From Escherichia coli (GTDB lineage: Bacteria > Pseudomonadota > Gammaproteobacteria > Enterobacterales > Enterobacteriaceae), in assembly GCF_011045215.1 (NCBI RefSeq), contig NZ_CP049201.1: a DNA stretch of 64,000 nt; one strand, written 5' to 3'. Positions 1 to 11,383 of the stretch are shown piece after piece. The notes beneath the pieces were generated by a model that was given only the letters and a program-made list of their open reading frames with translations, was not told where the DNA came from and made no database searches. Position numbers and translations under genes: made by a program. Position 1 is the stretch's first letter. The number at the start of each line of letters is the position of its first letter.

Positions 1-56
1 GCACTGCTGGACACCCAGCCCACATCCTGACGCGCTTCGCTTGTCTGCTGCTTCGC

Positions 57-81
57 CGGGGCATAAAAAATTTATGCCCCG
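57..81. other. Perfect inverted repeat / stem-loop (CGGGGCATAAA-aaa-TTTATGCCCCG)
   Basis: 11-bp arms read directly; no adjacent T-tract, so not a canonical intrinsic terminator. Confidence 0.5.
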
Positions 82-560
82 ACTCTCCAGCTCCTGTATC
101 AATCAGATAATTTCACGACGTCTTCCAGCTTATTGCCATCATCGACGGTCAGGCTCTTACGCAATCCCATCGCGCTGACTGCATGTTCTCGCCGCCTCAG
201 TGCGATTTTGACGGCCTTATCTGCCACCCCATCAAATCAAAAGCCCTCACGTCTTTTTCACGCTCAGCGTGAGAAATACAGCCATTCTGTTGTGTTGCTG
301 CGACATCGTTCAGGGGATGCTATTTATCCCCTGAAACGCGGGCTGTTCCCCCGTCACCTGCGCGCAGAAAAAACGCGTTTTTTTGTGCACGCACGGATCC
401 TTGACGGATCCAGCCGCCACGGGGGCCGGAAGGGCAAAAAGTCGTTCAAAAAAATTGTGCAAATTTGTGCACTATCGTGCAGTGTGCATCGTGCTGTTTT
501 CTGCGCAAAAAACGGATGGTAAATTTGTTCGTAGCAGGGAAATTTTAATGAGCGCAAGAC

Positions 561-1091
561 ATGAAGAAAGATTCATATCCTTATTTGATTTGCATGACTG
601 TTTCAGTGCTAGGGATTATTTTCCTCTTTTACTGGTGGAGGGCAGATATCTACAGGATTACATATCTTAATTCGCGTATATCCAATTATTACATCTTGTG
701 TAGTATGGGTATGTCCTTTTTCTTCTCCTTGTTTCTGGTGAAGAGGGGGGTAGTGAAGCAAAGTGGCTGGAAAGGACTGTCGGAATACCTGAAGGTTTAT
801 GCTGGCTCTTGCATTCTTACAGGGATATTCCTGATTATTCCTCTTATGATGGTGACTTATTTTTTACCAGGAGTAACATCATCATATGTTGCACCGTATG
901 AGTATACATCTGGTAGTTCAAGAAGCTGTTCCGGAGCGTTTGTTGATGATCCCGAACTGCATAAAAATATTCTTATTTGCTATCCGTATGGTAACTATGA
1001 ATATGACAATATTATCTATGTTGAAAAGAAAACTAATGCATTGGGCGTTGTTGTGACGTATGCACAGACTGCACGAGACGATGCTGAATAA
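561..1091 (+). CDS. Hypothetical polytopic membrane protein (about 3 predicted TM helices, soluble C-terminal ~80 aa); AT-rich cargo gene
   Basis: 176-aa ORF with three long hydrophobic segments; strongly AT-rich relative to flanking DNA; no family recognised. Confidence 0.5.
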   Translation: MKKDSYPYLICMTVSVLGIIFLFYWWRADIYRITYLNSRISNYYILCSMGMSFFFSLFLVKRGVVKQSGWKGLSEYLKVYAGSCILTGIFLIIPLMMVTYFLPGVTSSYVAPYEYTSGSSRSCSGAFVDDPELHKNILICYPYGNYEYDNIIYVEKKTNALGVVVTYAQTARDDAE

Positions 1092-1282
1092 GATACTACA
1101 GATATAGTCCACTTTTTTGTTTATTTGTCGGGATAAAAACAAATTACCCCGACTCACCATGTATTAATCTTCCGCTTTAAGTTAGTATTTTAGCTGCGCT
1201 GTCCTGCTATTCAGCAAAGCGGCGTACTTTAATGCGTCCTGTGCTTTCTGGAATTTAAGTGCATAGTCAGTGGCGATTTTTT

Positions 1283-1564
1283 CTAGTTCAGCGATTCGGT
1301 TGTTTTTGGTTTCCAGCCAATCAAGTAGCGCCAATACTTCAGGATCCCGACATCCAACACTGTTACGCGTGATTTTTCATAATGTTCGTCGGCAAGAGTT
1401 CGGCCAATTTTGAAATCTCCATCATCACCATAACCGGAGCAGGCATAAACAACCTGTGCTCCAGATATTCGCTGAATTGACATTTCCTCGCCGCAAATAG
1501 GGCATTTCGGTACTGGCACAGGTGAATAACGTTCACGTAATGCCTGATAGTTGATTTCGCTCAT
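1283..1564 (-). CDS. Small zinc-ribbon protein (CPICG...CSG); probably frameshifted, coding signal continues in another frame to 1185
   Basis: 93-aa ORF with CxxC...C motif; protein-like translation continues in a second frame (DPEVLALLDWLETKNNRIAELEK...) past the stop at 1283. Confidence 0.4.
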   Translation of the reverse strand: MSEINYQALRERYSPVPVPKCPICGEEMSIQRISGAQVVYACSGYGDDGDFKIGRTLADEHYEKSRVTVLDVGILKYWRYLIGWKPKTTESLN

Positions 1565-1627
1565 TAAGTCGTTCTCCTTGTTTATGTTCTGAGGTGGAGA
1601 GCAGGGCGAACTCGCCCTGATGTTGTG

Positions 1628-1939
1628 TTATTCAGGAAATAACGCCCGGATATTTCCGGCCATCTGACTGGTTATCTGTGCGGTTGATACTGGCTGTGAT
1701 GCGGGGCGTTCTGTCCTGGTTTGTGTCACTGATAACGCTTCATCATCAGCCCATGCAGCTAGTCGGTAAGCCTCTGCCGGATTCATTTTCAGAAGTGCCA
1801 GCCCGGCCAGAAAAGCCACACGTTGGCCGCTTTTGCGGGCTTCTGGTGTAAGGCTGTCCAGCCAGGCGCATGCTTCGCCTTCGTTCTTGACGGCGGCGGG
1901 CTTCAGATAGAAACTTATCCGTCTGGTTGGTGTCGTCAT
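1628..1939 (-). CDS. parR: ParR (StbB)-like centromere-binding protein
   Basis: 103 aa from Met at 1939; resembles plasmid R1 ParR (from memory); AAGGAG RBS; starts 4 nt after parM stop. Confidence 0.55.
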   Translation of the reverse strand: MTTPTRRISFYLKPAAVKNEGEACAWLDSLTPEARKSGQRVAFLAGLALLKMNPAEAYRLAAWADDEALSVTQTRTERPASQPVSTAQITSQMAGNIRALFPE

Positions 1940-1943
1940 TGGT

Positions 1944-2903
1944 TTACTCCTTGTCCATTGCGTACAGCCCATTAACCAGAGCAAACTGTGGCACCCCGTC
2001 CGCGATGAAAGTCGCATTAACTCCGCAGGCTTCGCGGATAGCGGGTGCCACAATCTCCGCCCCGCCACCGACAACCATCACCCGCCCGTAACCCGAAAAA
2101 ACCGCCAGCGCGCGGATCACGCGTTGTTTCAGTGTTTCTTCCTTTTCACGAATAACCGCCATCAGGCTGGCGTAATGCGCGTCATTGTGGATGTGTTGGC
2201 GCAACCAGGCTTCATCATGGCGATGTTCGATAATGGTATTGGCGATGTGGTGACTGGTACGCATACCGTTAGCGGCCATCACCGACAGCACGGCACCGGC
2301 CATCAGGGAGACGCCTACGTGTGGATCGCAAAACACCTGGCTGATACCTGCCAGTTGCCCCTGAACCTTTGCCACATCCAGCGTGGTTCCGCCTAAATCC
2401 ACAATCAGCAGGGATTCAAACGGACTCATGTCAGCCAGTGCTTTAAAGCCAGCCGGAATGGATTCAGGCATAACCCGCACGTTACGGATAGTGAATGCTT
2501 CGCCGTTCTGGTACTCCACCGGGCGCATAACGTTCGCTTTTTTGCGGTTGATGTTGGCCATGTCCGGCTGTGCGTTTGTGTCGAAATACTCGCTCAGTGG
2601 CAGGGTGACAACCACATCCACCTCCTGTGGCGTGATGCCTGATTTGACCAGCGTGTGATGAATGGCGATTACATTCACATCGCTGTACTGGTATTGCGTG
2701 TCGGTCGTCTGGACAAAGCGATCGCTGACCGGATCAAAACCATAGCGCACGCCATCAAGCATGTAGTTCGCGGGCTGCATGCCACCGAACGGCGCAGATC
2801 ATTCCGACTTGAAGCTGTTCGGGCTGATGGCGTTGCGGCGTTCGCCATTCTCAGTCCATGCCAGCTTGATGTTGGTGGAGCCGTCGTCGATACAAATTTT
2901 CAT
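1944..2903 (-). pseudogene. parM: ParM (StbA)-like actin-type partition ATPase, interrupted by in-frame TGA at 2799-2801
   Basis: N-terminus MKICIDDGSTNIKLAW...NSFKSE then TGA, then in-frame continuation SAPFGGMQPANYML...; strong similarity to R1 ParM (from memory), where this position is Trp. Confidence 0.75.
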
Positions 2904-2932
2904 GTCGCTTTTCCTTATGTTGATTAATTAAT

Positions 2933-3050
2933 CGTTTACGGGATTCTGAAATCCCGTTTTTGCCTGTTTTGTGTGCGCTTCATATATCGCGGCGCGTTTT
3001 TTGCTCATTTACGGGATTTGTGAATCCCGTTTCTGTCTGTTTTTTGTTTC
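2933..3050. repeat. Two copies (2933-2975, 3006-3050) of a ~45-bp repeat, each with palindrome ACGGGATT-N4-AATCCCGT; candidate parC-like centromere/operator
   Basis: Direct repeat with internal inverted repeat, immediately upstream of the parM start. Confidence 0.6.
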
Positions 3051-4533
3051 CACTGGTCAGGCCACCCCGCAGCAGGTCTGCTTTGCGGCGGGCACGTTCA
3101 GTGGTTTCACTGATTCTCTGTGCGTGCTCTGCGTCGCGGATGGCGCGCAGCATGTCAGAAAGCACGGTAACGGGGGTTTTCATGGTGTTCTGGTCCTGCT
3201 GAAGTGTGGATGCCAGACGTGCGGCGGCTTCGAGGTCTGATGCCCCCAGCTGTTCCAGATAGCTGGCGACCGGGTTATGGCGGATCTCCGTGCTGCTTAC
3301 GCCGTGATTACGGCTCAGGCGCTGCCAGAGCTGCGTGATTCGGCTGTCCGGGCGGGTATCCGGTTTGCGTACAATTTCAAATCCCTGCGGTGCAATGATG
3401 CTGCCGTCAACGTACAGGCTGCCGCCCCGTAACAGGTGCTGCATCTGCTGTTCACCGATATGCATGCCGAGAGATTCGGCAGATTCCCGCCATTCTTTAG
3501 CGAGTAATTCGTGGTTATCAGGCAAAGGCCGCTGCTGTTTGCGGCTCTGTGTCCAGCTCTGCATTTCATCACTGCTGTTTTTTGCCTGTTTGTCACGCAG
3601 CGAACGCATCAGCGCCCGGCGTTCGTGCCGTTTCAGTGAGCGCACCCATTCATCCACATCAACGCCGTCAGGAAGCTGCGGCCACGGTGCTGGCCGTTCT
3701 TCCGGCTGTTCTGTCCCGTTGTTGTCCGTTTCCTGTACACGGGGACAGTTATTGCCACGAGTCCAAGGGGCGGCAGGGCCGCTCTGAAGGTCAAAACCAT
3801 TTTCGCGGGAGCTGTCTTCCGCTTCCGGTTTGCGTCTTACCAGCTTCCAGTTATCCGGATGCGTGCATACGCGGGAAGACTCCCCGATGAGCGGCGACCA
3901 GATCCCGTAAATCTGTACACTCTGCTCACCGTAATCGTTCAGTTCATCTGCGAGGTCGTAGGCGGTGCGAATCAGGTAGTCTTTGCGTGGAACAAGCACG
4001 CCACCCTGTTTTTCAATGTAGGTGGCAAAACACCCGGCATCAGCGGCAGCGAGTACCGCATCCATTGCGTCATCCTTCAGCCGTTGCGGGCCTTCCGGGT
4101 TGCGTGCCATCTGGCTGGCAAGGCGGCGCAGTTCACGCCACACCTGACGGGAGGGGATACCAAAGAACTGGAACTGGCGGACCCGGTGAAGGCGCGCCCA
4201 GCCGATGGCGCGTTCCACGCTCTCGGCCATTGATTTTCCGGTTTCGTGGTCAACGCGTGGCTTGCCCGTTTTCGGGTCGATGCCATCCACGGCGCGGCTG
4301 TCCAGGTTCTTTCCGATGTAGGTGGCGATGTAGCTGGTTGGCGTGCCTTTTGAGCCGTCGACGTACTCCGCCTTAAAACGCGGAGTTATGTCATCGCCCA
4401 GCTCGTGGCGGTCTTCCTGAATGGCAATATCGCAGACGTGGGACACGATGGTTTCAATCTCGTCCGGATGTGCAAAGACCATCATATGCCAGTGCACAGT
4501 GCCGTCATGGTGAGGCTCCAGCGGTGTATTCAC
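2980..4533 (-). pseudogene. HUH-motif rolling-circle replication initiator, P2 gpA-like; apparently 5'-truncated
   Basis: 517-aa ORF begins at GTG right at the motif HHDGTVHWHMMVFAHPDE, preceded by in-frame TGA; upstream 300 bp is coding-like in two other frames. Confidence 0.5.
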
Positions 4534-4686
4534 TCAGCGAGGCACACCCGCCAGCAGTGTGATGCGCCAGCATTGCCGCAAATACGGAGGCCGGGGAGTC
4601 GTAATACGCCAGCAGTGATTCGCCATGCGGTGTCAGGCAGCGCAACGCCAGCCCGTGTGGTGTTAAGTCCACGCGGTAGCAGTCGT

Positions 4687-4836
4687 CTACTGTGAAATAA
4701 AGGGTGAGCGTTGTTCTTTAGCTGCCATTTCATCAATGACGGCTCGCTCTTCGAGGGACAGCCGAAGTGCCAGTCTTGGACCTGTGGCGGTGTTACGCGG
4801 AATGCGTGATCTGGTATCGTGAAGAACTTGTTTCAT
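4687..4836 (-). CDS. Small 49-aa ORF divergent from the XRE gene (possible Cox/excisionase-like or RHH regulator)
   Basis: ATG at 4836 to TAG at 4687; below the 60-aa ORF-track cutoff; position equivalent to cox in a P2-type early region. Confidence 0.3.
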   Translation of the reverse strand: MKQVLHDTRSRIPRNTATGPRLALRLSLEERAVIDEMAAKEQRSPFISQ

Positions 4837-4878
4837 AGTGGTATATTGTGATCATCTAATAGCTCATGAAATCATTTT

Positions 4879-4896
4879 GGTATCAAAAAAGATACC
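4879..4896. promoter_or_regulatory. Palindrome GGTATC-N6-GATACC in the divergent promoter region; candidate operator
   Basis: 6-bp perfect inverted arms with A6 spacer between divergent starts at 4836 and 4912. Confidence 0.35.
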
Positions 4897-4911
4897 TGTC
4901 AAGGTTTTTGT

Positions 4912-5316
4912 ATGAAAAATGATATTGGTCAGCGGTTGCGTGAGGAAAGGGAAAGATTGGGGCTTAGTCAAGTTGCTATGAGCGACATTGGTGGAGTCAA
5001 AAAGCTAACTCAGCTTAGATATGAGAAAGGAGATAGCTTTCCTGATGCTGCGTATTTGGCAGCGCTGTCTCGTTTTGGCCTTGATGTTCAGTATGTTGTG
5101 TTGGGAATTCACTCACCTGAAACTTATAACGATGATGAGCAGGAGTTGATTACTCGCTTTCGAGCAGCTTCGTTAGATGTAAAAAACGCGGTGATCGGGG
5201 CTTTAAAAGGTGCGGGCAGTGAAAAGGAAACTCAGCCATCAGGGCGTGAGTTAAATATTTCTGGTGGTAATAACCGTATCGCTGGTCGTGACTATAACGA
5301 AACTAAGGGTAGGTGA
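4912..5316 (+). CDS. XRE-family helix-turn-helix protein (repressor-like) with C-terminal tail carrying an NNRIAGRDYNE motif
   Basis: N-terminal HTH signature (IGQRLREERERLGLSQVAMSDIGGVKKLTQLRYEKG); low GC. Confidence 0.7.
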   Translation: MKNDIGQRLREERERLGLSQVAMSDIGGVKKLTQLRYEKGDSFPDAAYLAALSRFGLDVQYVVLGIHSPETYNDDEQELITRFRAASLDVKNAVIGALKGAGSEKETQPSGRELNISGGNNRIAGRDYNETKGR

Positions 5317-5331
5317 TAGTAGGGAGGTGAC

Positions 5332-5982
5332 ATGGCCGTCAACTCAAACGGTTCAAACAATCGCGTTGCTGGGCGTGATTTTCACGAAAAGAATATTCAG
5401 ATAGAGCGATATGATGGTTCTCATACCGTCAATATCGCAATCCCTTCGAATAATGATGATGACGCTCGCCCTTTGCTTAAGGCACAGCGTAAGGAGCTAA
5501 ATAGCTTGGTTGCTGCTATTGCAGAAGCTAGCAATACTGAAGCGTTTATTATTTGGCAAAAAGTACATGCGGAGATTGGTGTAGCTGGTATTGATGATAT
5601 GACAATAAATCAATATAAAACAGCGGAGAGTTTTCTGCATGCAATGCTTGAGCGATGTAAAGATCATGATGCCTGTAAGACTCTTGTAAGTTTATTACTA
5701 CGTAACAGTGAAGACTGTGGACTTCGACAAAAACTTCTGCGGTATTGCCATATCAATTTCGGTACAGGACGTTTAAACGATCTTACTCGTTCTCAGTTAC
5801 AGTCTGCATTGTCGTGGTTAGAGCAACAATCGGTATCAAGCCACTCAGAGAATTCGACCTTACCAGAAGTTCGCCTTCGTGCTTCAGAATTAATCCGATT
5901 TTATCCAAAAGAAATAATATTCTTTATCTGCGTAGGGGTTTTGGTAGGCGGAGCCATTTCTAGGATGTTTTTTAATTTGTAA
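5332..5982 (+). CDS. Hypothetical protein, cytoplasmic domain plus single C-terminal transmembrane anchor; N-terminus repeats the NNRVAGRDFHE motif
   Basis: 216 aa; strong RBS AGGGAGGTGA 5 nt upstream; C-terminal hydrophobic segment IIFFICVGVLVGGAI; low GC. Confidence 0.6.
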   Translation: MAVNSNGSNNRVAGRDFHEKNIQIERYDGSHTVNIAIPSNNDDDARPLLKAQRKELNSLVAAIAEASNTEAFIIWQKVHAEIGVAGIDDMTINQYKTAESFLHAMLERCKDHDACKTLVSLLLRNSEDCGLRQKLLRYCHINFGTGRLNDLTRSQLQSALSWLEQQSVSSHSENSTLPEVRLRASELIRFYPKEIIFFICVGVLVGGAISRMFFNL

Positions 5983-6011
5983 TCTTACTTGAGCTAAATT
6001 GAGGCAATGAC

Positions 6012-6359
6012 ATGAAAGTAAAAAAGGTTCAACTATTAGTTGCTTTTTTATCTATGTTTTCTTTTTCCGCCGTCGCAATGCCTTTTAAAACTATTGAACG
6101 TGAGAGTTTCAATGGAGTATGGCCATTTAATACAGATGAGGTTCAATTGCAGTGTCTTGATGGTAATCCTTATGTGATGAATTTTGACGATAATAAGTTA
6201 TATGCGCTTACAGGTTTGGCTCGAATAAAAGGTAAAACATTTGGTGCGTTACCGTTAGATAACAATAATCCATTTTGGCTAGATAATGATGCCGCCCCAG
6301 GGTTAAAAAAGAATCTGGGGGACGTCACTAAGGCTGCATTTGATTTATGTGATAAGTAA
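6012..6359 (+). CDS. Small secreted/periplasmic protein with signal peptide (tentatively DUF2511/YebY-like)
   Basis: 115 aa; N-terminal signal peptide MKVKKVQLLVAFLSMFSFSAVA; family assignment from memory only. Confidence 0.55.
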   Translation: MKVKKVQLLVAFLSMFSFSAVAMPFKTIERESFNGVWPFNTDEVQLQCLDGNPYVMNFDDNKLYALTGLARIKGKTFGALPLDNNNPFWLDNDAAPGLKKNLGDVTKAAFDLCDK

Positions 6360-6364
6360 CAAAA

Positions 6365-7366
6365 ATGTCGGTTCGTAAAACTCCATCAGGTAAATGGCTT
6401 TGCGAATGTTATCCCTACGGAGCATCGGGAAAACGCATTCGTAAACAGTTTGCGACAAAAAGTGAGGCGCTCTCTTATGAGCGCCGTTTAATGAATAGTA
6501 GAGTTGGAGACGAGTTTCAAGATGGTTCTGGTCCTCGTCTTTCTGAGTTGATTGCTCGTTGGTTTGAGATGTACGGAAAAACCTTGTCCTCTGGTGCAGA
6601 GCGCAAAGTCAAACTTGAGGCGATTTGTTCTAGGCTGGGAGATCCATTTGCTTCTCAGTTTGACAAAAATATGTTTGCTACTTATCGGGAAAGAAGGCTA
6701 TCAGGAGAATGGAATCCCAAGGGGAAGAAAAAACTTAGTGAAGCAACCGTTAATCGCGAGCAGTCATATCTACATGCTGTTTTTGCCGAACTGAAGCGCC
6801 TTGGGGAGTGGTCTGGTGAAAACCCCCTGACTGGAATTCGCAAGTTTCGTGAGGAAGAAAAGGAGCTGGCGTTTCTGTATGTAGATGAGATTGAACGCCT
6901 TTTGATTGCGTGTGATGATTCACGGAATAAAGATTTGGGGGTTGTTGTCCGTATTGGGCTTGCGACTGGTGCTCGGTGGAGTGAAGCAGAAGGATTAAAG
7001 CAATCTCAAGTACTGCCCGGTCGAATCACATTTGTTAAAACTAAAGGAAAGAAGAACCGCACTGTACCGATTTCACCTCAATTGCAGGCTATGCTTCCTA
7101 AAAAACGAGGAGCGCTATTTTCACCATGTTATGAGGCTTTTGACGCTGCAATTAAGAGAGCGAAGATAGAGCTCCCTGATGGGCAATTAACTCATGTGCT
7201 ACGTCACACGTTTGCTAGTCATTTTATGATGCGGGGCGGAAATATTCTTGTGTTGCAAAAAATACTGGGGCATAGCGATATAAAAATGACTATGCGTTAT
7301 GCGCATTTTGCTCCGGGTCATTTAGAGGCTGCTGTTGAATTAAACCCTTTTGACAATAGAGGGTAA
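6365..7366 (+). CDS. int: Tyrosine recombinase, P2-type phage integrase
   Basis: 333 aa; motifs LATGARWSEA, ITFVKTKGKKNRTVPIS, HVLRHTFASHFMMRGGNILVLQKILGH, MRYAHF closely match P2 Int (from memory). Confidence 0.9.
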   Translation: MSVRKTPSGKWLCECYPYGASGKRIRKQFATKSEALSYERRLMNSRVGDEFQDGSGPRLSELIARWFEMYGKTLSSGAERKVKLEAICSRLGDPFASQFDKNMFATYRERRLSGEWNPKGKKKLSEATVNREQSYLHAVFAELKRLGEWSGENPLTGIRKFREEEKELAFLYVDEIERLLIACDDSRNKDLGVVVRIGLATGARWSEAEGLKQSQVLPGRITFVKTKGKKNRTVPISPQLQAMLPKKRGALFSPCYEAFDAAIKRAKIELPDGQLTHVLRHTFASHFMMRGGNILVLQKILGHSDIKMTMRYAHFAPGHLEAAVELNPFDNRG

Positions 7367-7472
7367 AAAGTGGCGATAAAAAGTGACAATAGATTCAAAT
7401 GGCGTCGTATAGAGCTATTTGCAAAGTTAATAAAATCATAAGGTTATGATTTATAAATGGTGGTTGATAGTT

Positions 7473-7527
7473 TTTAAAATCCCTCGGCGTTCGCGCTGTG
7501 CGGGTTCAAGTCCCGCTCCGGGTACCA
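7473..7527 (+). other. leuZ: 3' ~55 nt of tRNA-Leu (leuZ) ending in CCA: attachment-site core; not an intact tRNA
   Basis: TTTAAAATCCCTCGGCGTTCGCGCTGTGCGGGTTCAAGTCCCGCTCCGGGTACCA matches the leuZ 3' part; upstream sequence only partly tRNA-like, no acceptor-stem 5' strand. Confidence 0.8.
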
Positions 7528-7570
7528 TGGGAAAGATAAGAATAAAATCAAAGCAATAAGCAGTGTCGTG

Positions 7571-7596
7571 AAACCACCTTCGGGTGGTTTTTTTGT
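7571..7596 (+). terminator. Intrinsic terminator of the leuZ tRNA operon
   Basis: AAACCACC-TTCG-GGTGGTTT stem followed by T-run. Confidence 0.8.
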
Positions 7597-7722
7597 GCCT
7601 GCAACTTGTCGTTACACCCTCCTTAATTTTTAATCACCGGCAAAGCCACTCAAAAAGTATCTCTGATACGGACCGGCATGTAAGATAGGTGCTGGCGAGT
7701 TGAGATCCACAAGGAAAAGCGT

Positions 7723-8388
7723 ATGAAAACGGGACCGTTAAACGAAAGTGAGTTGGAATGGCTGGACGATATTCTGACCAAATACAACACTGACCACGCC
7801 ATCCTTGATGTGGCGGAGCTGGACGGTTTATTGACGGCAGTGTTGAGTTCTCCGCAAGAGATTGAACCGGCACAGTGGCTGGTTGCCGTGTGGGGTGGGG
7901 CTGACTATGTGCCGCGCTGGGCGTCAGAGAAAGAGATGACGCGCTTTATGAACCTGGCTTTTCAACATATGGCCGATACCGCAGAGCGTCTGAACGAATT
8001 CCCGGAGCAGTTTGAGCCGTTATTCGGCTTGCGAGAAGTTGATGGCAGCGAGCTGACGATTGTTGAGGAGTGGTGCTTTGGCTATATGCGGGGCGTGGCA
8101 CTTTCTGACTGGTCAACATTGCCCGATTCGTTAAAACCAGCGCTGGAGGCGATAGCGCTGCACGGTACTGAGGAAAACTTCGAGCGGGTAGAGAAGATGT
8201 CGCCAGAAGCGTTTGAAGAGAGCGTAGATGCCATTCGACTGGCGGCGCTTGATTTACATGCATACTGGATGGCGCATCCGCAGGAAAAAGCTGTTCAGCA
8301 ACCGATCAAAGCAGAAGAGAAACCGGGGCGTAACGATCCTTGTCCGTGCGGCAGTGGTAAGAAATTTAAGCAGTGCTGCCTGCATTAA
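7723..8388 (+). CDS. yecA: UPF0149 protein YecA with C-terminal SEC-C zinc motif
   Basis: 221 aa; C-terminal [13 protein letters not shown]; K-12 synteny. Confidence 0.9.
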
Positions 8389-8449
8389 GAAGTCAAATTG
8401 GGTGTCAGCGTTAATTCTGGCACCCAATAAGGAATTTGAGGCTATCTAA

Positions 8450-9661
8450 TCACCCCACTTCTGGTAACAACCCTGCCGCAATCAAAAATTGCACGCCAAT
8501 CACAGCAATACCACAGAGAAACACCACCACCAGCGCCGGACGACCACCTTTGACCCGGTAACCCGCTTGAGGATTGTGCCTTCTGCTTTGCCAGGTCAAC
8601 AGCGAAGGGATAATCAATGCCAGTACCGCCAGCGCCACACCGGCGTAACCCAGCGCCATCACAAATCCTCGTGGATAAAACAGTGCAAACGCCAACGGCG
8701 GCAGAAAGGTAATTGCTCCAGTTTGCAATCGTCCACCAACGGTATTTGAACGCTGAAACAAATCAGCCAGATAATCAAATAAGCCTAACGCAACGCCGAG
8801 AAATGACGTGGCGAGGGCTAAATCAGCAAATAAATGCACTGCCAGCTCAACATGCGGAGAGGCCACCATTTCGCGTAACGCCTGTAACAGCCCGTTTAAT
8901 CCGGCATGATTAGCCAGCAATCCCATAAAGGTTGTTGAATCAATGCTGCCAAGCGTCGCCACCTGCCAGAAAATATATGCCACCAGGGGGATCGCACTAC
9001 CGATTATAAACACCCAGCGTAGCTTACGAATGTTGCCATCCATATAGCTGACAATACTCGGCACGCTACCGTGAAAACCAAACGACGTAAAAATCACCGG
9101 GATTGCAGACAGTGCCAGCCCCTGTTGCAACGGCAGGGTTAAAAGATTCACTTTGTGAATATGCGGTAGCAGCAATACCAACATCACCACCAAAAAAATA
9201 ATTTTGGCGCTGAACAGAAAACGGTTAAATAAATCGACCAGCGATGTTCCAACACAAACCACGCCACCGGCAACAAAAGTGAACAACAGCACGCCAGCGG
9301 TTGCCGACATTGAAATACCTGTCCAGTCGCTGATGCTGGAGGCCAACAATTCACCGGCACCGCTGATGTATGCCGCAGTCAGAGCATACATTAAGAACAT
9401 CATACTGAAGCCCGTCAGCCATTGACCGTAGCGTCCCAGATAGCGTTTTGCCAGCGTGCCCAGACCGGTATCTGCCGGAACATGCTGGTACACCTCCAGC
9501 AGTAATAGCGCCGTGTAGCACATCAACGCCCAAAGCCCAATCAACAAGATTAACGTAACGCTAAAACCAACACCGGCCGCAGCCAGCGGCATTGCCAGCA
9601 TGCCTGCGCCAATTGTGGTTCCCGCCACGATAAAAACACTTCCCAGGGTTCTGTTTTTCAC
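8450..9661 (-). CDS. tyrP: Tyrosine-specific transport protein
   Basis: 403 aa polytopic permease; synteny. Confidence 0.95.
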
Positions 9662-9752
9662 GCTTTCTTCTGTCCTGACGATCTTTATGAGTGATATCTG
9701 CGGCGCAGGTTAAGGCATAACGGCTGCTTCGTCAAACCGACGTTACATATGG

Positions 9753-9770
9753 TGTAAATATAAATGTACA
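9753..9770. promoter_or_regulatory. TyrR box upstream of tyrP (TGTAAA-N6-TGTACA)
   Basis: One mismatch to TGTAAA-N6-TTTACA consensus, in tyrP promoter region. Confidence 0.5.
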
Positions 9771-9852
9771 ATAAAAAGCATTCAGTCCTGCGCTGGCGCA
9801 AAGTCTTCATAAGCGGCAATCGCTACGCTAGGCTTTTTTTTGAGGAGGAACG

Positions 9853-10092
9853 ATGGACTCTATTCACGGTCATGAAGTGTTAAATATGATGATTGAATCA
9901 GGCGAGCAATATACGCATGCCAGTCTGGAAGCTGCGATTAAAGCGCGTTTTGGTGAACAGGCACGTTTTCACACTTGCTCGGCAGAAGGGATGACAGCGG
10001 GAGAGCTGGTAGCGTTTCTGGCAGCAAAAGGCAAATTGATAGCTTCAGAAGAAGGTTTTTCGACCGATCAGAGTAAGATTTGCCGTCACTGA
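9853..10092 (+). CDS. yecH: Small protein YecH
   Basis: 79 aa; synteny. Confidence 0.85.
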   Translation: MDSIHGHEVLNMMIESGEQYTHASLEAAIKARFGEQARFHTCSAEGMTAGELVAFLAAKGKLIASEEGFSTDQSKICRH

Positions 10093-10129
10093 TTTGAAAC
10101 GGCGGCAGAAAACCTGCCGCCTGAGAGCA

Positions 10130-10627
10130 TTAGTTTTGTGTGTCGAGGGTAGAGAGTTCTTTGTCGATAAAATACAGACCTTCGCCGCTTTTGCCTGCCA
10201 GGCTTAATTTATCAATAATCGATTTGAACAGTTTCTCTTCTTCATGCTGCTCAGAAACATACCATTGCAGGAAATTAAATGTTGGGTAGTCCTGATTGGT
10301 CATTGCAGCATGAGCCAGTTCGTTAATTTTCTGGGTGATTAATTGTTCGTGTTTATAGGTTTCCTGGAATAATTCATCAAGTGAGGAATATTCAGCAAAC
10401 GGAGATTCAACGGTATTAATACGCGGTAAATTGCCGGTATCAGTCAGGTAATCAAACAGACGCTGCATATGCGTCATCTCTTCCTGGGCGTGACGGCGCA
10501 GGAACGCGGCAGCACCTTCGAAGGTATGATAGCTGCACCAGGCGCTCATTTGCTGATAAAGCAGTGAAGAGTACAGTTCCAGGTTCATCTGCTCATTAAG
10601 TTTTTCAATCATTTCTGGTTTCAGCAT
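10130..10627 (-). CDS. ftnA: Ferritin
   Basis: 165 aa from [13 protein letters not shown]; ORF-track start is 5 codons upstream. Confidence 0.95.
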
Positions 10628-10797
10628 GATAGTGCTCCACAAAGGTTATATTTGTTGCTGTGGCGTCACTATAATTTGTTATTTTATTATTTGCAAAAGG
10701 TAAAATATAAACTTCAATTATTAAAAATACGAATGGGAATAAAACGCATTACCGCTATTTCTTTAATCAGCGAAGATCCCCTCGCTGATTAAAATAT

Positions 10798-11121
10798 TTA
10801 GAGAAAGACAGGGAAGGCGGAATGATGGCACTGATATGACAAAGTGAATTCCGTATTCAAACATAAGGAACCCGCAAAAAGGCTACAGTTGCCTACTGGC
10901 TGACCAAAGGGGATCGCGTGGGTATAGCCTTCCTGCTGGCATGCGCGATCGGCGATCCCGCGACTGACATAACGATCGGTATGGGCATGCTGCAAAAAAG
11001 CCTGGTCATAAACCAACCGTACAATACCTGTTGCCGCGTCAACTTCGCTCACATGGGCCTGGCGAGTAACTGTACACCCCGCCAGCGTTATTAATGAAAG
11101 AGTCAGAATCAGAAGTCTCAT
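10798..11121 (-). CDS. yecR: Lipoprotein YecR
   Basis: 107 aa; signal peptide with lipobox LAGC. Confidence 0.85.
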   Translation of the reverse strand: MRLLILTLSLITLAGCTVTRQAHVSEVDAATGIVRLVYDQAFLQHAHTDRYVSRGIADRACQQEGYTHAIPFGQPVGNCSLFAGSLCLNTEFTLSYQCHHSAFPVFL

Positions 11122-11285
11122 GGTCCAGCCAGAAGAGTAAGAGAAAGCACTATTTTACGCGTTACAGCGCTGCGACAATGGCCGGAAAAGACGCCTGGCA
11201 GGCGCTATTTCTTGCCATCTGTAGGTGTCAGAAATAGGGGGGCTGTTTTTGGATTATCATTTTTATAACATTAAAGGGGTATTTA

Positions 11286-11301
11286 TGTGATTTGTATCAC
11301 A
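11286..11301. promoter_or_regulatory. CRP binding site (TGTGA-N6-TCACA) upstream of azuC
   Basis: Perfect match to CRP half-sites. Confidence 0.6.
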
Positions 11302-11383
11302 TAAAGATTGATTTTTGTGATGGTTGTCATATTATAAGCGCAAAGACAATAACACCTGTATAACAAATGGTCGGAGTGCCGCG

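Follow-up and report, generated by a model that had tools for sequence, protein, structure and literature searches.

A probable repressor and a membrane-anchored Flk_N protein with matching, co-varying tails in the lysogenic operon of a P2/186-like prophage of Escherichia coli

We analysed a stretch of 64,000 nucleotides of an Escherichia coli chromosome (RefSeq assembly GCF_011045215.1, contig NZ_CP049201.1), called here the window, and focused on the right end of a P2/186-like prophage (Peduoviridae) that is followed by the genes yecA, tyrP, yecH, ftnA and ftnB. Positions 4912-7366 can be read as the lysogenic operon of this defective prophage, which lies at leuZ-yecA, the operon coding for a repressor, a membrane-anchored partner, a cargo protein and an integrase. 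The products of the first two genes carry the same short motif, at the C-terminus of the repressor and at the N-terminus of the partner, and in related loci these two tails vary together. The anatomy of the module, that is its operon structure, the protein families, the conserved gene pair, the variable slot behind it and the matching, co-varying tails, is confidently established. As to function, the sequences give in our judgement an even chance that contact between the tails couples the repressor to its membrane-anchored partner, which would thereby modulate repressor activity.

Three open reading frames (ORFs) lie on the + strand at the right end of the prophage: ORF1 (4912-5316, 134 residues), ORF2 (5332-5982, 216 residues) and ORF3 (6012-6359, 115 residues), with gaps of 15 and 29 bp. 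A preliminary description of this DNA, made without database searches, had reported them as a low-GC cassette inserted between a repressor-like gene and the integrase gene and coding for an XRE helix-turn-helix (HTH) protein, a membrane-anchored protein and a small secreted protein. The coordinates, the three protein types and the low GC content are all borne out: ORF1, ORF2 and ORF3 have 44.7%, 40.6% and 35.9% GC, compared with 50.1% over the window as a whole, 55-58% in the ParM-like and gpA genes to the left and 51-53% in yecA and tyrP. The limits of the unit had to be redrawn, however. The integrase gene int (6365-7366, +) begins 5 bp after ORF3 and has a similar GC content (44.5%; GC at third codon positions, 0.36), and a scan of the + strand detected no terminator-like site between the four genes. 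The unit is thus a four-gene lysogenic operon made of repressor, partner, cargo and int, and not a three-gene cassette; low GC is common to the entire lysogeny module, int included. The product of int is a tyrosine integrase (phrog_1, E = 4.7e-77), annotated as 'phage integrase' in a relative. Likewise, ORF1 had been taken for a cassette member standing beside a repressor, while the immunity repressor is best sought in ORF1 itself. As for the 'repressor-like gene' of the preliminary description, it is probably the Arc-like ORF at 4687-4836, to which we return below.

ORF1 most likely encodes the CI-type immunity repressor of the prophage, as opposed to cargo. The protein is composed of an XRE HTH domain (residues ~5-64), two conserved helices (~74-101), a flexible linker and the tail motif. 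Its HTH domain matches Pfam HTH_31 (E = 1.3e-4) and HTH_3 as well as the repressor families phrog_8 (E = 3.6e-14), phrog_4 and phrog_3, and AlphaFold2 (AF2) models it with a predicted local distance difference test score (pLDDT) above 90. ORF1 is divergent from the early (Arc-like/Cox-like) genes and keeps this position and orientation in related prophages. It fits the CI-type repressor of P2/186-like phages by its HTH families as well as by the arrangement of genes, both in the window and in intact relatives. The HTH domains of the repressors vary widely between otherwise related prophages, while the C-terminal third, comprising the helices and the tail, is conserved. We read ORF1 as an immunity repressor because this combination of a variable HTH with a conserved C-terminal part resembles that of an immunity determinant. 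PADLOC-DB v2 returned only weak generic HTH matches for ORF1 (RmrA, E of at least 2e-4), and a sequence search of the PDB returned nothing for ORF1 or ORF2. A search with the C-terminal 56 residues of the repressor, from which ten candidates were collected, matched only short proteins of 71-87 residues.

ORF2 encodes a tail-anchored protein with a Flk_N domain. It matches phrog_5825 over its full length (E = 2.4e-101) and consists of a disordered yet conserved N-terminal region (residues 1-45), a helical Flk_N domain (~47-170; nucleotides 5470-5841) and a C-terminal anchor (~194-214; nucleotides 5911-5973), as delineated by the AF2 model and by hydropathy. The single strongly hydrophobic stretch of the protein lies at its extreme C-terminus (residues 195-209, Kyte-Doolittle 2.87). 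Flk_N (PF27202) is annotated on a protein that is 96% identical to ORF2 (P0001) and on nearly all homologues; our local Pfam-A scan of ORF2, with a library copy taken to be without PF27202, yielded only noise and nothing above threshold. The NCBIfam equivalog model of Flk (NF007987) aligned with residues 38-168 only and gave 55.3 bits (E = 6.4e-15), short of its cut-off of 353 bits. A Foldseek search with the ORF2 model also retrieved Flk proteins, which are ~22% identical in the alignments. The first sub-domain of Flk_N is homologous to a module found in the Rha/Ant-like antirepressor families (P0226, E = 2.4e-5). Across genera ORF2 is conserved at 58-77% identity, with long invariant blocks. 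Among isolated phage genomes, tblastn yielded no more than record 520873, which is derived from a prophage, and weak matches in Ralstonia phages, and PADLOC, run on ten proteins of the region, assigned no defence family to ORF2, ORF3 or int.

The C-terminus of ORF1, which ends in …LNISGGNNRIAGRDYNETKGR and a stop, and the N-terminus of ORF2, MAVNSNGSNNRVAGRDFHEKN…, bear the same G/N/R/D-rich motif of ~17 residues. It reads LNISGGNNRIAGRDYNE in the repressor (5251-5301, +; located by alignment and regular expression) and VNSNGSNNRVAGRDFHE in the partner (5338-5388, +). When the regular expression was run on all six frames of the 64-kb window, it hit only the repressor tail and 5359-5382, within ORF2. 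The alignment score of the two tails is 62, compared with a mean of 20.4 for shuffled sequences (z = 9.5). Ten of the 17 residues are identical, six of these ten being written with different codons, and nucleotide identity amounts to 30/51. In other loci the tails share 60-72% of their nucleotides, with many synonymous differences at conserved residues. These synonymous differences show that the likeness of the tails is held at the protein level and does not stem from a fresh duplication or gene conversion; recent gene conversion was rejected as the source of tail identity on this ground.

The motif is present in both proteins of the window and of ~130 related loci, and it comes in two classes. 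Class A (…G-x-x-N-R-V/T-A-G-R-D-Y/F…), to which the window belongs, is that of the P2-like group and of many Mu-like contigs; other loci have class B (…F-H/N-G-x-V-x-Q-V-A-x-G-D-I/V-x-N…). Named members of class B come from Pseudomonas, those of class A from Enterobacterales, along with unnamed metagenomes. Within each locus the two tails agree and vary jointly. The window pairs NNRIAGRDY in the repressor with NNRVAGRDF in the partner, L014 pairs GEFAARDIVNH with GQFAGRDIVNN, L015 pairs QQFNGPVGTVTTGDVVN with QQFHGAVEQVAAGDIKN, and L100 pairs NRVAGDNYYEKK with NRTAGRNYYEVK. Oddities specific to one locus, such as NYYE in L100 or F-A-x-RDIVN in L014, thus occur in both copies.

Co-variation of the tails was evaluated on 22 non-redundant loci by comparing the summed local-alignment score of the cognate pairs with that of 100,000 random re-pairings. 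The cognate sum was 1162, for a permutation mean of 803 (standard deviation 65), and was reached by none of the 100,000 permutations. Within class A alone, 387 of 100,000 permutations reached the cognate score. The classes of the two tails agreed in 20 of 20 loci as assigned by the script pattern; L103 and L107, with one or both tails overlooked by this pattern, were assigned to class B by eye. In L134 the tails match even though an inserted ORF of 114 residues separates the two genes. In some partners the motif stands two or three times in tandem (P0161, L142, L144).

ORF1 is closed by three successive in-frame stops, TGA TAG TAG (5314-5322, +), and ORF2, which is preceded by the ribosome-binding-site-like sequence GGAGGTG, is in the same reading frame. 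This in-frame arrangement is common to P2-like loci (L003, L007, L011) and is not seen in Mu-like loci. Synthesis of an ORF1-ORF2 fusion by stop read-through or frameshift was considered and rejected, given the three successive stops and the absence of the in-frame arrangement from Mu-like loci.

In order to determine how far the repressor-partner pair is conserved, we examined the surroundings of Flk_N genes in related loci. An HTH gene ends directly upstream of the Flk_N gene in 92 of the 95 loci scanned by script. The order HTH gene, Flk_N gene, variable gene, int holds throughout the P2-like prophages of E. coli, Klebsiella and Serratia that were examined. More distant Flk_N proteins are encoded by transposable phages of the Mu-like type, which carry rve transposase, Mu gp27 and holin/SLT lysis genes; here, too, an XRE repressor-like gene divergent from the early operon immediately precedes the Flk_N gene. 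The pair is therefore a module common to two unrelated backbones of temperate phages, P2-like and Mu-like. Its hosts include E. coli (O157:H7 among them), Klebsiella pneumoniae, Serratia and Pseudomonas aeruginosa, and K. pneumoniae prophages very commonly encode the phage-type Flk_N protein, with P0085 indexed in 1,158 blocks. No full-length HTH-Flk_N fusion was found among 139 representative clusters.

Several partners carry the N-terminal tail without Flk_N. Those of L161 (2974-3345), L162 and L164 (2998-3345) are proteins of 115-123 residues in which the tail is combined with a CxxC…CxxC zinc ribbon and a membrane segment, predicted as two transmembrane helices in L161 and L162 and as one long hydrophobic stretch in L164. 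The partner in L165 (3010-3573, 187 residues) has the tail and two transmembrane helices, and L099 encodes, after its Flk_N gene, a second small protein (707-1003) with a related N-terminal tail and two transmembrane helices. The tail thus behaves as a portable module mounted on different membrane proteins. What stays constant across loci is a repressor with a C-terminal tail and an adjacent protein with an N-terminal tail, the latter being membrane-anchored with its tail in the cytoplasm. Two Flk_N proteins (P0156, P0178) have in addition a periplasmic C-terminal domain of ~140 residues behind the anchor. In L098 this domain is encoded as a separate lipoprotein gene (3638-4165) right after the Flk_N gene (BLASTP E = 5e-19 and 7e-18). 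Being either fused or adjacent, the periplasmic domain ties the module to the periplasm in at least some lineages.

Two further observations concern these relatives. Genes for BamE-like lipoproteins also come after the module in L015, L099 and L161. On L097, the Flk_N protein (264-944) has an N-terminal extension of the type 'KGAGNxINFGTQxN' and the upstream ORF (2-256) is devoid of the C-terminal tail motif; the upstream ORF and the partner N-terminus have another segment in common (DRLARIVDLLESL and ERLARLAELLKDE, respectively). This may represent another kind of pairing, seen on a short contig.

The tails are read as touching each other because identical tails on adjacent gene products co-vary. 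ORF2 would then be a dedicated partner of the repressor, facing the cytoplasm and held in the inner membrane by its C-terminal anchor. The tails would bind homotypically, as short beta-strand or beta-solenoid-rung elements, an idea suggested by short G/N-rich segments with alternating hydrophobic residues that sometimes occur in tandem copies. The repressor would be recruited to the membrane-anchored partner, or converted there, and the amount of active repressor would be tuned in this way. This could work in either direction: sequestration or inactivation of the repressor would lead to induction, while buffering or stabilisation would maintain immunity. One option is that the partner acts as a membrane-tethered antirepressor that sequesters or inactivates the repressor in response to a cue perceived at the membrane. 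This option fits the homology of part of Flk_N to Ant/Rha modules, and also the existence of antirepressors that act by aggregation: RstC and Qtip are known to act by aggregation or polar sequestration of their repressors. The input side of the device would be formed by Flk_N, by the zinc ribbon in other phages and, in some lineages, by the fused or adjacent periplasmic domain.

In a stronger form of this proposal, which we consider doubtful, the tails would be a prion- or amyloid-like motif, a beta-solenoid rung, and the partner would template the repressor tail or vice versa. If so, temperate phages would possess a RecA-independent, membrane-linked switch, in which an envelope or superinfection cue would cause the repressor to aggregate and the prophage to be induced. 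Alternatively, a disturbed repressor would trigger a membrane effector and thereby a Rex-like abortive response. Functional amyloid signalling would extend from NLR and cell-death pairs to the control of a transcription factor, and the flagellar regulator Flk would be a domesticated relative of the phage partner. Chromosomal Flk-like proteins (P0171, P0166) have no repressor neighbour, and P0171 contains 'TGDRTAGAGG' near its N-terminus. That this segment might be a degenerate remnant of the NRTAGRD tail, in line with Flk domestication, is pure speculation.

Several points weigh against a coupling through the tails. We infer the identity of ORF1 as the immunity repressor from its family, its position and its pattern of variation. 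No promoter on the + strand passed our promoter scan. When the four class B loci are taken alone, their preference for cognate tails is not significant, and part of the overall co-variation could reflect the adaptation of both tails to a host factor. In an AF2 model of linker-fused ORF1 and ORF2 computed with a paired alignment, both tails are disordered (pLDDT 30-40) and adopt no docking structure, a result that is uninformative for oligomers. The motif is also shorter (~17 residues) and more charged than typical amyloid signalling motifs. Finally, the window has lost the lytic genes that would be the targets of the repressor, and the module may be idle there.

An adaptation to a common third party is the basis of an alternative that we hold to be rather unlikely: the tails could be a tag recognised by Lon, ClpXP, FtsH, a chaperone or a Tum-like derepression protein, and ORF2 a membrane decoy that protects or exposes the repressor. 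Lambda CIII, which competes with CII for FtsH, provides a model for such a decoy. The motif does lie at a free, predicted disordered terminus in both proteins, its classes follow host groups where these are named (B with Pseudomonas, A with enterics), and intact relatives have a gene for a 'derepression protein'. Proteolysis also has a parallel in this phage group, the degradation of 186 CII by FtsH and RseP being among the points made in PMC7708051. Yet terminus-specific degrons would not usually be placed at the C-terminus of one protein and at the N-terminus of another, as the two motif copies are. Locus oddities shared by both tails (L100, L014) and the cognate preference within class A fit direct pairwise co-evolution better, and a tag leaves the membrane nature of every partner unexplained. 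Should the tails be a degradation tag after all, the module would still point to an unidentified regulator of repressor stability. We give hardly any credence to the idea that the tails are a functionless relic of an old duplication or of a split ancestral gene. The shared frame of ORF1 and ORF2 in the P2-like group, with only stop codons between them, and the tandem copies in some partners (P0161, L142, L144) could be understood in this manner. However, both copies retain their protein sequence despite diverged synonymous sites, and they change in parallel between lineages; moreover, none of the 139 representative clusters contains a full-length fusion and Mu-like loci lack the in-frame arrangement.

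Other readings turn on what ORF2 and its neighbours are. The preliminary description had likened the composition of the three genes to superinfection-exclusion and abortive-infection modules, and a Rex-like defence unit made of all three seems to us distinctly improbable. Co-transcription with the repressor, as in lambda rexAB, is classically found for exclusion functions; the products of ORF2 and ORF3 are a membrane protein and an exported protein; some Mu-like phages have a periplasmic domain fused or adjacent to the Flk_N protein; and the slot behind the pair holds candidate defence-like genes in relatives (BRCT plus WYL-like, TerB-like plus BRCT, a weak PDC-S48 match). Against this, PADLOC has no match for ORF2 and ORF3, a constant triad is not observed among relatives, the variation of ORF1 is that of an immunity determinant, and the conservation of ORF2 is unlike that of fast-turnover defence cargo. 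ORF2 or the cargo gene may nonetheless have a role in exclusion. A mimicry of Flk, a case of lysogenic conversion in which ORF2 would alter the lysogen's flagellar type III secretion switch and hence its motility, appears very improbable. Flk itself is cytoplasmic, is anchored by its C-terminus, inhibits late flagellar secretion and interacts with FlhA-C (PMC13344023). ORF2 does have the Flk_N domain and the C-terminal anchor layout of Flk, but it scores 55 bits for a cut-off of 353 and is ~22% identical, and the phage-type protein is abundant in prophages of K. pneumoniae. This species is non-flagellate. Mimicry leaves the constant repressor neighbour and the matching tails unexplained, and some partners lack Flk_N.

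The closest formal precedent of the module is offered by amyloid signalling pairs, such as fungal HET-S/NWD2, bacterial BASS pairs and Bab/Agp (with BASS11). Bab/Agp was described in an E. coli prophage as adjacent genes with a common terminal signalling motif (bioRxiv 10.1101/2024.11.07.622273), and the pair studied here is likewise located in a prophage. In all of them a short G/N-rich motif is found at the C-terminal end of one product and at the N-terminal end of the product of the neighbouring gene, the motifs resemble each other within a locus and are modular, being carried by different domains, and one partner is at the membrane. The two genomic hallmarks of such pairs, terminal positions in adjacent genes and within-locus similarity, are thus both found here. 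The partners belong to other types: the C-terminal motif is carried by a DNA-binding XRE repressor and not by a pore-forming Bell/HeLo effector, and the N-terminal one by a small membrane-anchored Flk_N or zinc-ribbon protein and not by an NLR/STAND or TPR sensor. In HET-S/NWD2, BASS and Bab/Agp activation is transmitted by templating. We do not class the module as an amyloid signalling pair because the partner types differ and the tails are disordered in AF2.

Other known systems share part of this layout. In the repressor/antirepressor pairs VP882 cI/Qtip, CTXphi RstR/RstC and P22 c2/Ant, a small phage protein binds the immunity repressor and takes it off DNA, and Ant/Rha-like proteins contain the module that is homologous to part of Flk_N. 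In contrast to ORF2, the known antirepressors are soluble, have their own controlled promoters, are not co-transcribed downstream of the repressor and share no terminal motif with it. Flk (Fluke/RflH) of Salmonella and E. coli resembles ORF2 in its Flk_N domain, its cytoplasmic orientation and its C-terminal anchor, but is a chromosomal, stand-alone protein of 333 residues with neither a repressor neighbour nor a clear N-terminal tail motif; Flk-type representatives (P0166, P0171) match Flk_N in two stretches. Anti-sigma factors of the RseA type are also single-pass inner-membrane proteins whose cytoplasmic N-terminal part binds a transcription factor, with periplasmic partners fused or next door. 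They have no sequence or fold similarity to ORF2, however, and the target here is a repressor active by default, with a homotypic tail in place of a folded anti-sigma domain. Lambda cI-rexA-rexB is similar in that genes downstream of the repressor, one for a membrane protein included, belong to the lysogenic transcript. It differs by the lack of homology and of a motif in common with CI, and a Rex reading predicts no co-varying tails.

The families involved are individually known or catalogued (XRE repressor, PHROG 5825/Flk_N, DUF2511). Full-text literature searches found no description of a repressor-partner module, of common tails or of Flk_N in prophage immunity regions, and the pairing of repressor and partner looks undescribed. 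The preliminary description had offered the region as its best candidate for an undescribed system and had recognised no named one. PADLOC indeed knows no family for ORF2 or ORF3, and novelty can be retained for the two-gene repressor-partner module, though not for a three-gene defence cassette. Lysis-lysogeny switches are among the best-studied gene circuits, and the module, which is widespread, belongs to a circuit of this kind. If the tails mediate contact, it would represent a new coupling of the prophage switch to the cell envelope, would give Flk_N a functional context and would possibly be a second case, after Bab/Agp, of motif-templated signalling in enterobacterial prophages.

The third gene of the operon has a different status. 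ORF3 (6012-6359, +) encodes an exported DUF2511/YebY-like protein whose hydrophobic signal-like segment (residues 1-22, nucleotides 6012-6077) ends at AVA|MP, a cleavage site placed by eye. It matches Pfam DUF2511 (PF10709, E = 1.7e-5), phrog_2950 (E = 1.7e-39) and, in the PDB, YebY (7n0j, E = 0.0067). ORF3 has a length similar to that of YebY/MlbQ and keeps, besides the signal peptide, W37 and the pair C48/C113, which forms the disulfide of YebY (PMC8689200). Unlike yebY, ORF3 lies outside the yobA-yebZ-yebY copper operon, between the Flk_N gene and int; DUF2511 (yebY) genes located between CI repressor and XerD-like recombinase genes had already been remarked in Enterobacteriaceae (PMC8689200).

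The interval between the Flk_N gene and int, equivalent to 5983-6364 of the window, is occupied by at least ten unrelated gene sets among the related loci L003-L096. The ORF3 family fills it in 47 loci; in others it is replaced by unrelated genes, several of them for cytoplasmic proteins. These include a BRCT plus WYL-like protein (288-295 residues) and a TerB-like plus BRCT protein (292-298 residues) with a weak PADLOC match to the candidate defence family PDC-S48 (E = 2.7e-8). Further loci have an acidic DUF8087 protein (85-108 residues), a VasI-like exported protein, small transmembrane proteins or nothing in this place. Because the content of the slot varies between relatives, ORF3 is cargo in a hotspot and not a fixed partner of ORF1 and ORF2. 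It would be an independent accessory periplasmic protein, expressed in the lysogen with the rest of the operon. Of the inserted cargo seen by the preliminary description, ORF3 stands as the occupant of a variable slot, while ORF2, which follows a repressor gene in 92 of 95 loci and in Mu-like phages, does not. A lack of co-occurrence had been named there as an outcome against the cassette, and the survey indeed found no fixed triad. Among the profile searches also suggested there, Pfam matched ORF1 (HTH/repressor) and ORF3 (DUF2511), and PADLOC returned nothing for ORF2 and ORF3. In practical terms, the interval between partner gene and int is a cargo hotspot that gathers accessory and candidate defence genes.

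Upstream of ORF1, the intergenic region 4837-4911 forms a divergent switch region with a candidate promoter and candidate operators identified by consensus matches. A leftward sigma-70-like promoter, TTGACA-17-CAAAAT, runs from 4902 to 4874. The direct repeat TCAT(A/T)(G/T)TGGTAT occurs at 4833-4844 and 4872-4883, 39 bp apart, and a palindrome, GGTATC-N6-GATACC, at ~4879-4896. The repeat and the palindrome (4833-4896), which overlap the leftward promoter-like site, are candidate operators. On the other side of this region lies the small ORF 4687-4836 (-), which encodes an Arc-like (ribbon-helix-helix) protein (phrog_3431 Arc-like repressor, E = 3.3e-15); its counterpart is labelled 'Arc-like repressor' in phage 520873. 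It is the opening gene in the leftward early operon and is truncated by a deletion.

Over this region, 'Escherichia phage 520873' and an O157:H7 prophage show 97-98% identity to the window and have the same gene order, and at least 80% of the interval 4600-7700 was found in 505 of 5,426 complete E. coli genomes (~9%). Comparison with the O157 prophage (L002) by blastn aligned 1885-4520 of the window with 478-3113 of L002, and 4698-8000 with 8001-11303. The prophage of the window is defective because ~4.9 kb of its relative are replaced by 177 bp at 4521-4697. In the lost segment (3114-8000 of L002) lay the 5' portion of replication gene A together with the early lytic operon in full, with cox/apl-like, DUF4761, DUF4754, MarR-like and derepression protein genes; the gpA ORF is reduced from 940 residues in L002 to 517. 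The lysogenic operon has been kept intact though its regulatory targets are deleted.

The chromosome-side junction of the prophage was placed at 7473-7700 by genome matches, as an attachment region that overlaps leuZ and adjoins yecA; the related O157:H7 prophage is located between leuZ and yecA. This int-yecA interval matches 5,424 of the 5,426 E. coli genomes, under the annotation 'tRNA-Leu' (leuZ) in prophage-free ones. ARAGORN found no tRNA in 1-9000 of the window. A leuZ-matching stretch without an intact tRNA indicates that only part of the tRNA gene is kept at this end of the prophage.

At the left, a 176-residue ORF (561-1091, 38% GC) with several hydrophobic stretches, recognised by eye, matches phrog_1416, a family of unknown function. 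It is followed by a gene for an ead/Ea22-like small protein (1283-1564), to the left of the ParM/ParR-like partition genes at 1628-2780. This left part may be another accessory region, in a P2-like prophage equipped with plasmid-type partition genes.

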